In this document: one piece after another, positions 37,742-40,734 of the stretch
Layout: the number at the start of each line of letters is the position of its first letter
Position numbering within the stretch: position 1 is the first letter of the stretch
Assembly (NCBI GenBank): GCA_034670305.1
Contig: JAXMNT010000030.1
Coordinates: forward strand, 1 to 64,000
DNA: 64,000 nucleotides
Source of the DNA: Deltaproteobacteria bacterium
GTDB taxonomy: Bacteria > Myxococcota_A > Polyangia > Polyangiales > Houyiibacteriaceae
Direction of reading: 5' to 3'
Position numbers and translations under genes: made by a program
Notes under the pieces: generated by a model
Databases searched by the model: none
The model's input: only the letters and a program-made list of their open reading frames with translations
What the model was told of the DNA's origin: nothing

Positions 37742-39592
37742 GTGAACCGAAACACCGCCAAAAAACTGGCCCACCTTCTCGCGGATGAGTCCCAGCGCGC
37801 GCTCGAGCAGATGCGCATCTCGGGTCATCCCAAACCCCACTTCGTCTCGCAGCTGCTCCGTCACGCCGAGGAACGGCGCATGGAGGCCCGCTTCGGCGCG
37901 CTGATGCAAGAGGACCACACGACGCGCCGCAGCGGGCTCGTCGATGTGCGCGTCGGTTCGTACCGGCGCGATCAGGTGCGCAACGGCGGGGTCAAAGACA
38001 ACAGCACCGACCTCGAGTCGTTCGACATGTTGCAGCTGCCGCTCGGCGGCCCGGGCGATGGCATCCGCCATGCGCTCTGGAAGCTGACCGAAGCCAAGTA
38101 CCGAGAAGCCTGCGACGACTTCCTGCACAAACGCGCGGTCGAGCTGAACTACCTGGACGAACACCGGGCACTGCCGGCGTTCGAGCGGGTGAAACCGGTC
38201 GTCGATCTCGACATCCAGACCCCGCCGCCCTTCGACGTCGATGCGTGGCGCGACTTCGTCCTGCGCGGCAGCAAGTCGATTCAACGCTTCCCGCTCGTGC
38301 GCGATGGCCACCTGCGGGTGCAGGCGACGAACATGGTGCGGATCTTCGCCAGCACCGAGGGCACGATGATCGCGCGCAGCCAGCCGCTGCGCACGGTGGA
38401 GCTGCACTTGTGGGTGCTCTCGCCCGACGGGTGGGCGGTGCCACAGACCCGCACCTGGTTCACCACCAACGACGACGAACTGCCGGACCTCGCGGAAGTC
38501 CGGCACACGATGAACGTGCTCTACTCGCGTTCCGTCGCGCTCGCGTCGGCGCCCATGATCCGCAGCTTCGCCGGGCCGGTGTTGCTCGAGCCGCTGCCGG
38601 CCGGGCTGATGGTGCACGAAGCGCTCGGCCACCGCCTCGAAGGCGACCGACTCCTGGCCGGCCAAGAGGGACAGACGTTCCGCGACCGACTCGGTTCCGA
38701 AGTGTTGCCGGTCGGCATCACGGTGCGCGACGACCCGCGCATGACGACGTTCGAGGGGCGCTCGCTGGTGGGTGCATTCGACTACGACGACGAAGGCGTG
38801 GCGAGCCGCGAAGCGAAGCTCATCGACGATGGCAAGTTGGCCGGGTTTCTGACCTCGCGCAGCCCCATCGGCAAAAAGCACAAGAGCAACGGACACGCGC
38901 GCAGCGCCCACCACGCGCGGCCGATGAGCCGCATGGGCGTCACGGTGGTCGAAGCGACCTCCGACGCGATGACCGAAGCACAGCTCTTCCAAGCGTTCCT
39001 CGAAGAGATCCGCGAACAGGAGGTCCCGTTCGGCATCCGCATCGTCGAGGCCTTCGGCGGCGAGACCTCCACCGAAGCCTACGACTTCCAAGCGTTCCTC
39101 GGAGAGATCGAAGTCGCCACCCGCGTCTACCCGGATGGGCGCGAAGAGCTCGTGCGCGGAGTCGACTTCGTAGGCACGCCGCTCAACGCGATGCGCGGCA
39201 TCGTGGCGGCGGGTTCCAACCGGGTGGTCGACAACGCCTGGTGTGGCGCGGAGAGCGGCTACGTGCCTGTGAGCACGATCTGCCCGGCGCTCCTGGTCGA
39301 CGAACTCGAGCTTCAGTCGAAGCCGATGCGGCCGATGACGCAGTACTCGTACCCGGTGCCTTGGCAGTCCAACGCGGAGCCGAAGAAGAAGCCGAAGAAG
39401 CCGAAGAAGCCCGGCACGCCGAAGAAGCCCCGCAAGCCGAAGAAGCCCCGTGGGCCGAAGCTCGCGACTGAATTGTCGCGGAGGGGTGGGGCAGTCGAGC
39501 GAAGCGAGCGGTCGACCCCCGCAGGCATCCGACGAGGAGGCCGAGCCCAGCCCCGCAGCGACGCTCCCAGTTCAACGGGGAAGTCCAAGTGA
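37742..39592 (+). CDS. TldD/PmbA family metalloprotease with Lys/Pro-rich C-terminal tail
   Basis: VHEALGHRLEG (HExxxH), YDDEGV, SNGHAR, NAWCGAESG; PKK repeats at 39379-39460. Confidence 0.88.
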   Translation: MNRNTAKKLAHLLADESQRALEQMRISGHPKPHFVSQLLRHAEERRMEARFGALMQEDHTTRRSGLVDVRVGSYRRDQVRNGGVKDNSTDLESFDMLQLPLGGPGDGIRHALWKLTEAKYREACDDFLHKRAVELNYLDEHRALPAFERVKPVVDLDIQTPPPFDVDAWRDFVLRGSKSIQRFPLVRDGHLRVQATNMVRIFASTEGTMIARSQPLRTVELHLWVLSPDGWAVPQTRTWFTTNDDELPDLAEVRHTMNVLYSRSVALASAPMIRSFAGPVLLEPLPAGLMVHEALGHRLEGDRLLAGQEGQTFRDRLGSEVLPVGITVRDDPRMTTFEGRSLVGAFDYDDEGVASREAKLIDDGKLAGFLTSRSPIGKKHKSNGHARSAHHARPMSRMGVTVVEATSDAMTEAQLFQAFLEEIREQEVPFGIRIVEAFGGETSTEAYDFQAFLGEIEVATRVYPDGREELVRGVDFVGTPLNAMRGIVAAGSNRVVDNAWCGAESGYVPVSTICPALLVDELELQSKPMRPMTQYSYPVPWQSNAEPKKKPKKPKKPGTPKKPRKPKKPRGPKLATELSRRGGAVERSERSTPAGIRRGGRAQPRSDAPSSTGKSK

Positions 39593-40314
39593 TCGTCGTC
39601 ACCGGATGCCGCCGCTCCGGCACGTCGTTGTGGATGCAGATCCTCTCCGAAGCCGGTCTGCCGATCGTGGGCGAAGCGTTCGCCCCGGAGCTCGAACCGC
39701 TCGCCGACGCGAACCCCAATGGGTTCTACGAGTCCGAACACCGCTACGGGGTGGTGGGCGAAGCGGACGCGCTTCGCGGACAGGTCTTGAAGATGTTCGC
39801 GCCCGGCCTGCTCGAAGTCGACGAGGACGAGCTCGAACGGGTTCTGTTCTGTCTCCGGCCCTGGCGCGCCCACGTCGCCTCGACGACCGCGTTCGAAGTG
39901 CTCGAGGCCGAAGCGCTCGGGGAAGAGATCCCGCAGTCGATGCCGCCCGCGCTCGAGTGGTGGTTCGAGAACTACTGCTTGCTCGGGGACTTCGCCGAGC
40001 GGGACTACCCGATGATGATGGTCGCCTACGACCTGGTCCTCGAGAAGCCGCTGGAGACGATCCAGCGGGCGCTGGTGTTCCTCGACCAGGACGAAGGGCT
40101 GGCCGAACACGCCGTGCAGGTCGTCGACCCATCGCTGCGCCACGCCGATGCCTCGACCGAGGTCGAAGTGGACCTCCCGGACGAGGTGCTGGCCACCTTC
40201 GATGCGTTCTACGACCGGGTCCGCAACCGCGACGCGTTCGACGACGCGTTCGTCGACCGACTCAGCGCGACCCACGAAGCGGTGATGCCGCTCATCGAAC
40301 CCCACCTCGAATAA
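39589..40314 (+). CDS. Sulfotransferase-like P-loop protein
   Basis: IVVTGCRRSGTSLWMQIL, NPNGFYE, YDLVLEKP, VDPSLRH; GTGA overlap with the tldD-like gene. Confidence 0.75.
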   Translation: MIVVTGCRRSGTSLWMQILSEAGLPIVGEAFAPELEPLADANPNGFYESEHRYGVVGEADALRGQVLKMFAPGLLEVDEDELERVLFCLRPWRAHVASTTAFEVLEAEALGEEIPQSMPPALEWWFENYCLLGDFAERDYPMMMVAYDLVLEKPLETIQRALVFLDQDEGLAEHAVQVVDPSLRHADASTEVEVDLPDEVLATFDAFYDRVRNRDAFDDAFVDRLSATHEAVMPLIEPHLE

Positions 40315-40316
40315 AA

Positions 40317-40597
40317 GTAGCGGCCGCAGTTCGTTGCGAGGTCCCGCGAAGCGGGCCAGTCCTCGAACAGCACCAACGAGTCAGGCGGCTCCACCCGTGC
40401 ACCTGCGCAGCGCAGGCCGAGCAACTGGTGCACTCCCCAAGTGCACACAGAGCGCCTCAAGGAGCGCCTGGGCGCAGCCGCCAATCGCATCAAGAGGGTT
40501 CTCCAAGGACCCATCGAATGGCGGCGAGCACGTGCAGGCAGCGACGGGCGCGAATTGGGGCCGCCAGTCCCGCGAAGCGGGCCACGCCCGTAGTGGC
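40317..40597. repeat. Highly structured ~280-nt non-coding element (MITE/REP-like or ncRNA)
   Basis: Direct repeat GTCCCGCGAAGCGGGCCA at 40341 and 40567; nested long-range stems; motifs shared with 895-987. Confidence 0.6.
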
Positions 40598-40601
40598 AAT
40601 T

Positions 40602-40641
40602 AAAAAGCGCGGCCGCAACGAGGGGGGTCGTTGCGGCCGCG
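40602..40641 (-). terminator. Intrinsic terminator with C6 loop (3' end of candidate sRNA)
   Basis: Perfect 14-bp stem 40608-40621/40628-40641, then CTTTTT on the minus strand. Confidence 0.85.
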
Positions 40642-40707
40642 AGATTGGGAAATGGCGAGCTGAGCGTAGGGGGGGGGAACGACGCTCGGGCGCATCGCCA
40701 CTTCACC
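40602..40707 (-). ncRNA. Candidate sigma54-dependent sRNA with two C-rich loops (Pxr-like architecture)
   Basis: Promoter, then SL1 with C9 loop, then terminator stem-loop with C6 loop and U tail; the G-U wobble in SL1 works only on the minus strand. Confidence 0.7.
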
Positions 40708-40716
40708 CAACTACCT

Positions 40717-40734
40717 ATGCGATAATGGTGCCAA
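40717..40734 (-). promoter_or_regulatory. sigma54 (-24/-12) promoter
   Basis: TTGGCACCATTATCGCAT: TGGCAC with exact GG-N10-GC spacing. Confidence 0.72.

Follow-up and report, generated by a model that had tools for sequence, protein, structure and literature searches.

The window, a stretch of 64,000 nucleotides at the start of contig JAXMNT010000030.1 of a deltaproteobacterial genome, contains a segment (40317..40597) that sits between the stop codon of a plus-strand gene at 40314 and a terminator-like hairpin at 40608-40641. The gene (39589..40314, plus strand) points at the element and lies outside it, and its weak sulfotransferase match is under the Pfam cut-off. From 40341 to about 40599 the segment is one full copy of a genome-wide, non-coding modular repeat, with every module on the plus strand. 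It starts with a module A (40341..40362) that is truncated at its 5' end, lacks the usual 11-base lead-in, and carries a hairpin with a C-GAA-G loop (40343-40355). A variable linker (40363..40396), the commoner of two linker types, leads to module B (40397..40433), in which two GTGCAC sites form a stem around an inner G-N-A hairpin; two bases of the inner stem are missing in the window copy. A variable spacer (40434..40466) with a small, partly conserved hairpin at 40452-40467 is followed by the long conserved stem, whose 5' arm is module S (40467..40483, with a 5-base deletion in the window copy) and whose 3' arm is module C (40519..40539, with compensatory changes across copies), the two being separated by a hypervariable loop of about 35 bases (40484..40518). 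Module K (40540..40555) joins C to the right copy of A (40556..40588, hairpin at 40569-40581), which forms a terminal direct repeat. The degenerate 3' tail (40589..40601) contains GTAG at 40590-40593, is A-rich thereafter, and runs on into the terminator of an adjoining candidate small RNA; its end is only approximate. As had been thought before, there is no credible open reading frame: two short mechanical ones overlap the stretch, and the unit lengths are spread 22/19/22 over the three classes modulo 3 (63 units). A second, partial copy of the family is located on the minus strand of the window at 902-1007.

The stems that an earlier note had proposed for the plus strand of 40317..40597 are all present, at most one base from where they had been placed. 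Its two flanking 18-mers are indeed identical (40341-40358 and 40567-40584), and the exact 18-mer occurs 28 times in the source genome. They do not, however, flank a unique RNA: because A is repeated at the ends of the unit, these direct repeats are the repeated end module itself. Similarly, GTAG is found near both ends as described, at 40317 and 40590, but the left one does not belong to the repeat, because genome matches to the window copy (BLAST) begin only at 40339-40346 and end near 40590-40620. The left flank (40311..40340, no strand) is therefore locus-specific and outside the family. It looks as if the terminator at 40602-40643 had been copied there and had since decayed, with an internal deletion, and it also matches the end of a Y1 transposase element at 15 of 16 bases, a likeness that is not significant after the number of comparisons is considered.

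The candidate small RNA itself (40600-40734, minus strand, about 110 bases) is separate from the element, and the case for an RNA gene is stronger here than for the window repeat. It comprises two stem-loops with C-rich loops and a U-tract, folds with a z score of -7.07, and is preceded at 40718-40734 by a sigma-54-type promoter motif. Promoter, loops, and stems are conserved in four of 24 other genomes of the same family. BLAST did not find it in a further 150 genomes of the order, although the four carriers were not among the matches listed either, and Rfam, Pxr included, contained no match. In one contig of a related strain (depth 4.4) that covers the window locus, the terminator of the small RNA is followed by letters other than the tail of the element.

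The source genome is a draft of 7.93 Mb in 105 contigs (68% G+C, 96% complete), in which BLAST finds many near-full-length copies with 73-89% identity. Depending on how many mismatches are allowed, the hairpin core of module A is counted 186-238 times, and a profile of the unit gives 214 matches. The other genomic copies anticipated by the earlier note thus exist at about 160 loci; according to a home-made gene caller (6,097 genes), 157 of the 162 module A loci are intergenic, three overlap genes, and two are inside genes. The commonest full order is A-B-b-S-C-K-A, with b denoting the 3' half of the B hairpin and all modules on one strand; it is found at 13 loci and is the order of the window copy. 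Solo A modules account for 70 loci; other loci have forms shortened at the 5' end or tandem arrays, the longest with three units. Among the 55 loci with both B and C, 52 finish in A, an A flanks the unit at either end in 44, and the distance from A to A is 222-236 bases in 44 of the 47 units free of other inserted repeats. An inverted A, B, or C module is present at only two of the 162 loci. In 43 of 63 units the first and last A have the same stem variant, where 29 would be expected, and the similarity of their tails also exceeds chance (p 0.001, 26 units). This would follow if each unit came with its repeated end from a single donor, or if the ends are homogenised locally. The 299 neighbouring genes share no gene family beyond single pairs, and the orientation of the copies has no bias with respect to local GC skew (74/150), which is noisy in a draft genome.

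On the plus strand the 281-base segment folds better than shuffled sequences (z -4.13, equalled by none of 200 shuffles), whereas the minus strand reaches a z score of -1.71 and is equalled by 11 of 200. In accordance with the earlier note, Rfam contains no match at the gathering score; of the two thresholds tried, the looser one yielded two chance microRNA matches (E 1.1 and 9.4) and nothing else. The nested fold, however, is not a trait of the family, and most of the pairs proposed for the window are missing in sister copies. In a comparison with 31 other aligned copies, in which the counts depend on the alignment, neither the outer stem with all its pairs nor the GGGTTC/GGACCC hairpin is retained in any copy, the GTGCAC/CCCCAA hairpin is retained in five, the CCCGT/ACGGG stem in eight, the CCTGCGC/GTGCAGG stem in 21, and the GCGC stem in 25. 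Judged by these alignments, the outer stem and two of the hairpins with CAAG loops seem to be mostly copy-specific. The window copy is also among the best folders (z about -4.5; the mean is -2.1 for 23 units sampled from the 45 in the genome, the window copy included), and for whole units in general the advantage over shuffles is slight (mean z about -1.5).

Instead, the family is held together by four conserved helices: the A hairpin, the B stem, the inner B hairpin, and the long S-C stem around its variable loop. Of 64 units found, the alignment comprises 32 copies (the window copy, 13 others from the genome, and 18 of the 19 from related metagenome contigs). Over the 33 pairs of these helices 95% of the cells pair, against 28-37% in slid controls, and seven pairs change on both sides, giving 38 such cells against 10.3 in shuffled alignments, a value that none of 500 shuffles reaches; these controls flatter the pairing because the helices were picked from the consensus and the copies are related, and the covariation counts overstate the number of independent events because the copies share ancestry. 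Stem variants of A, B, and S-C are found in every combination, which points to module shuffling. G-U pairs, which had been thought to favour the plus strand, make up one of 1051 cells of the conserved helices, and this argument is lost. In module B the loop is G-N-A closed by C:G in 67 of 68 cases (middle base C in 44, T in 12, A in 10, and G in one), and in module A it is GAA in 143 of 148, both counted with patterns that fixed the flanking stems and thus passed over decayed copies. In DNA, such d(GNA) loops closed by C:G are described as highly stable (PMC3201870; PMC13037366), whereas a related mini-hairpin is reported to be much less stable when made of RNA (PMC13037366). The G-N-A loops are the main reason to assume a single-stranded DNA form of the plus strand, and the folded form is thus probably DNA rather than RNA. 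Folding with circular or linear topology and with DNA or RNA parameters did not discriminate between these forms (21 of 62 monomers).

The copies are strongly concentrated at gene ends. Of the genes pointing at the 3' tail, 70 of 88 end within 22 bases of the core, with peaks at 12 and 16 bases, compared with five of 54 genes pointing away from it. At 14 of 15 orthologous tail-side comparisons the protein end is the same in both strains (one could not be framed), and the tail therefore usually abuts a stop codon that already existed. TAA is nevertheless over-represented at tail-side stops (13/70 against 5% genome-wide), so that some stops may come from the tail. On the 5' side, the stop codon of 15 of 61 genes is a TAG belonging to the element; at three distinct orthologous sites the final codons of the gene have given way to the element, which supplied the TAG. 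The repeat thus helps to explain changed protein C-termini. Element copies follow stop codons in both orientations. A location close to the 3' ends of genes has also been reported for REPs (PMC3733652).

The repeat appears to be confined to the source genome and close strains, as far as sequence collections can tell. BLAST did not find it in 40 relatives, four of which conserve the adjoining small RNA. A pattern search of 87 other genomes of the taxonomic family gave zero to four matches each, similar to the reversed control, while the same pattern matched 183 times in the source genome (reversed control 0). Two exact-pattern scans of a collection of species-representative genomes, to which the source genome possibly does not belong, yielded 0 and 0 matches, and viral contigs contained none. 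In metagenome contigs the family is present at 71 distinct loci, and most of their flanks match the source genome with 85-95% identity. Both flanks could be mapped to one place for 30 of these loci, representing 28 distinct orthologous sites. At 17 of the 28 sites the source genome has no module A match, the difference being a gain or a loss, and by eye about eight of these 17 "absent" sites retain a remnant or a related module; the other 11 carry A in the source genome, often with another number of units. At many orthologous sites, a strain that is about 92% identical either has the element where the other lacks it, or the reverse, or has another number of units. Because the junctions at the polymorphic sites are ragged, with host DNA often replaced, and a clean insertion site is nowhere seen, these differences may be gains or losses. 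No target duplication is present at the polymorphic sites or in general at 101 genome loci, where flank similarity equals that of the permuted control. The window locus does hint at a long target duplication (score 23; 99th percentile of the controls 21), but only two of the 101 loci exceed that percentile.

Given the fixed period, the tandem arrays, and the DNA-type loops, the likeliest reading is a single-stranded DNA element moved by an HUH enzyme in trans. With a probability of roughly 0.68, we regard the repeat as a non-autonomous mobile element. Its plus strand would fold while single-stranded, and a Y1 (HUH) transposase acting in trans would be the likely agent of cutting and re-joining, as in REP/BIME systems. 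The earlier note's first suggestion, a non-autonomous mobile element that forms a hairpin in single-stranded DNA, gains support from the copy number, the strain polymorphism, and the G-N-A loops. The unit might depart in the form of a single-stranded circle, or a rolling-circle-like strand transfer might lengthen it; either would give both the A...A redundancy of the units and the tandem arrays. Solo A copies could then be the product of deletion between the repeated unit ends, and selection would purge insertions in genes and promoters and retain those behind stop codons. For now, the repeat is probably a lineage-specific selfish element of a well-known type that can serve in strain typing; its importance would rise if its mover were found.

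Among the known systems, BIME-2 and the atypical BIMEs of Escherichia coli, which are linked to TnpA-REP/RAYT, come close in the account of PMC3333891: they are likewise intergenic mosaics of conserved hairpins and variable linkers, with tandem arrays varying in number between loci and strains, a conserved stem mismatch, ragged sequence variation, and Y1 transposase genes in the same genome. For BIMEs, whose tandem number varies between strains, a rolling-circle-like model has been proposed in the same source (PMC3333891). However, our family does not have GTAG 5' of the hairpin, is arranged head to tail on one strand instead of in REP/iREP inverted pairs, and is built from units that measure about 232 bases and repeat their end module, with no repeat-flanked Y1 gene, in contrast to those BIMEs (PMC3333891). 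With the GTAG and CGTC families of REPs, as characterised in PMC3733652, it shares the high copy number, the lineage restriction, the location within about 20 bases of 3' gene ends, and an end able to supply a TAG stop codon; the CGTC families of that account are also without a flanked transposase. The terminal tetranucleotide differs: GTAG follows the hairpin on its 3' side in 84 out of 197 cores, whereas most GTAG families of PMC3733652 have it in more than 90%. Moreover, the unit is a much longer composite with G-N-A loops, and its head-to-tail arrangement is one that PMC3733652 calls absent or under-represented in REPs. CGTC-tagged REPs are described with a terminal CGTC, a stem of 8-9 bp, and head-head dimers; here CGTC follows the core in 15 of 197 cases and there are no inverted dimers. 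In terms of GTAG REPs and BIMEs, we thus find a high-copy intergenic imperfect palindrome and tandem arrays varying between strains, and do not find the 5' GTAG, the REP/inverted-REP pairs, or a repeat-flanked RAYT gene (REPtron). Because the latter are three defining traits, the family is BIME-like in working and yet not classed as a member. Rolling-circle elements such as IS91, ISCR, and Helitrons have one fixed and one variable end, form tandem multimers, and make no target duplication. All of this is also seen in the repeat. A fixed target sequence is not seen at its copies, and the Y2 transposase profile PF04986 matched nothing in the source genome, just as it matched nothing in 14 control genomes. 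A search of the open literature found no published description of the family.

As the mover of the repeat, we consider a Y1 (HUH) protein about an even bet. The source genome encodes 18 full-length Y1 genes in four groups, 11 detected with Pfam (PF01797) and seven longer HUH/Y1-like ones by profile search (in the source genome, G000, these are C3:198147-199361, C3:211069-212283, C6:109043-110362, C3:219600-221159, C34:55544-57157, C44:10838-12412, and C6:10324-11274). Multi-copy and, by eye, with HUH and Y-x-x-N-type motifs, these proteins resemble the class 2 TnpA-Y1 without REP flanks of PMC6006769 and are candidate movers; unlike the latter as described there, the genes reside in elements of their own with their own inverted ends. 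The group of 404-439 residues, with terminal inverted repeats of about 22 bases, has the best, still weak, likeness to the repeat. The unit profile gave nothing significant against the ends of the Y1 elements (best E 0.43 and 0.51), and the best-scoring end has an uncorrected p of 0.006 among 24 tests. A 20-column match between such an end and module B, considered as a sign that the repeat originated from Y1 element ends, is likewise not significant after the number of comparisons. The link to GTAG and RAYT transposases drawn in the earlier note is not borne out: GTAG is found within 20 bases 5' of the hairpin in only six of 197 cores, and none of the 28 Y1-like places has a repeat copy within 1.5 kb. 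With a draft of 96% completeness in 105 contigs, a Y1 locus flanked by the repeat may be unassembled. We can also imagine, as a doubtful extension, that the unit is a non-coding single-stranded DNA minicircle of about 232 bases that is independent of GTAG, recognised by its C-GNA-G hairpins, copied by the rolling-circle mode by a class 2 Y1 protein in trans, provided with an LTR-like end, and steered just outside stop codons. If true, this would show the substrate of the class 2 Y1 enzymes that lack REPs. The GTAG-free head-to-tail unit with its G-N-A DNA loops and fixed period offers defined oligonucleotide substrates for finding out by which HUH enzyme repeats of this sort are spread, a question that REP families without a flanked transposase raise as well.

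The clustering behind stop codons and the long stem with its compensatory changes could also mean that the copies, whatever their origin, are retained as RNA control elements of 3' ends, affecting stability or acting as read-through barriers, with the structure selected in the mRNA. This would be in line with REPs near 3' ends, for which an action as RNA is considered possible (PMC3733652). It is nevertheless unlikely: as both orientations follow stops, the mRNAs would carry either strand, and gain, loss, and decay are rapid between strains about 92% identical. The hairpins are not followed by a U-tract on either strand, and the conserved helices are nearly devoid of G-U pairs. About as unlikely is an RNA copy, in which a retron-type enzyme would reverse-transcribe a transcript that is then inserted at breaks; as in SINEs, the 3' end would be fixed and A-rich and the 5' end truncated to varying extents. 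The variants form a series anchored at the 3' end, each nested in the next (A 70, KA 4, CKA 4, SCKA 2, BbSCKA 2, and ABbSCKA 13), the tail is A-rich and hypervariable, and as RNA the plus strand folds better than the minus strand in 19 of 21 monomers. The genome contains three reverse transcriptase genes (L032, L033, and L034), each with a structured upstream region, and two of them are retron-like by NCBIfam, below the cut-offs. Repeats resembling msDNA have reportedly been found in Nannocystis. Against this, a retron RNA as the origin was rejected, since the 5 kb around the three genes have only chance likeness to the element (best E 0.054), whereas repeats derived from a retron msr/msd would be expected to resemble the RNA encoded upstream of the reverse transcriptase. 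Tails are common to one locus and therefore copied, not added without template, the 101 loci have no target duplications, triloops with a free middle base suit DNA, and the orthologous sites show that short forms can be remnants of deletion.

It is very unlikely that the repeat is MITE-like, with decayed ends, and belongs to a cut-and-paste (DDE) system or one of recombinase type. Module K and the end of A make a short imperfect inverted repeat, and TAG is found at both ends of many A modules. The whole unit, however, has neither the terminal inverted repeats nor the target duplication of MITEs and instead has direct terminal repeats and tandem arrays, an IS110 transposase was not found in the source genome in a search whose controls worked, and by eye attC-type core ends are not seen in the copies. 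The genome also contains three tyrosine recombinase genes. That the segment is an undescribed structured RNA gene of this single locus, the other proposal of the earlier note, is hardly credible despite the plus-strand fold and the blank Rfam search and has largely been disproved by the number of copies and their polymorphism: the segment belongs to a dispersed repeat of this genome and close strains, was not found in the 40 relatives even where the small RNA is conserved, does not adjoin the terminator in a related strain, and owes its fold mostly to locus-specific stems that sister copies do not retain.

Other small repeats occur in the genome as well. Module D, a second small double-hairpin repeat with about 20 copies as judged from 42 half-matches, inserts between C and K of the repeat and into the ends of Y1 elements (examples in G000 are C1:95693-96233, C11:63972-64721 upstream, and C15:125554). 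Two more related repeats, modules E and F, share the GAA hairpin motif. In a region without called genes (G000 C89:11302-16825), several copies are located directly behind tRNA-like sequences.
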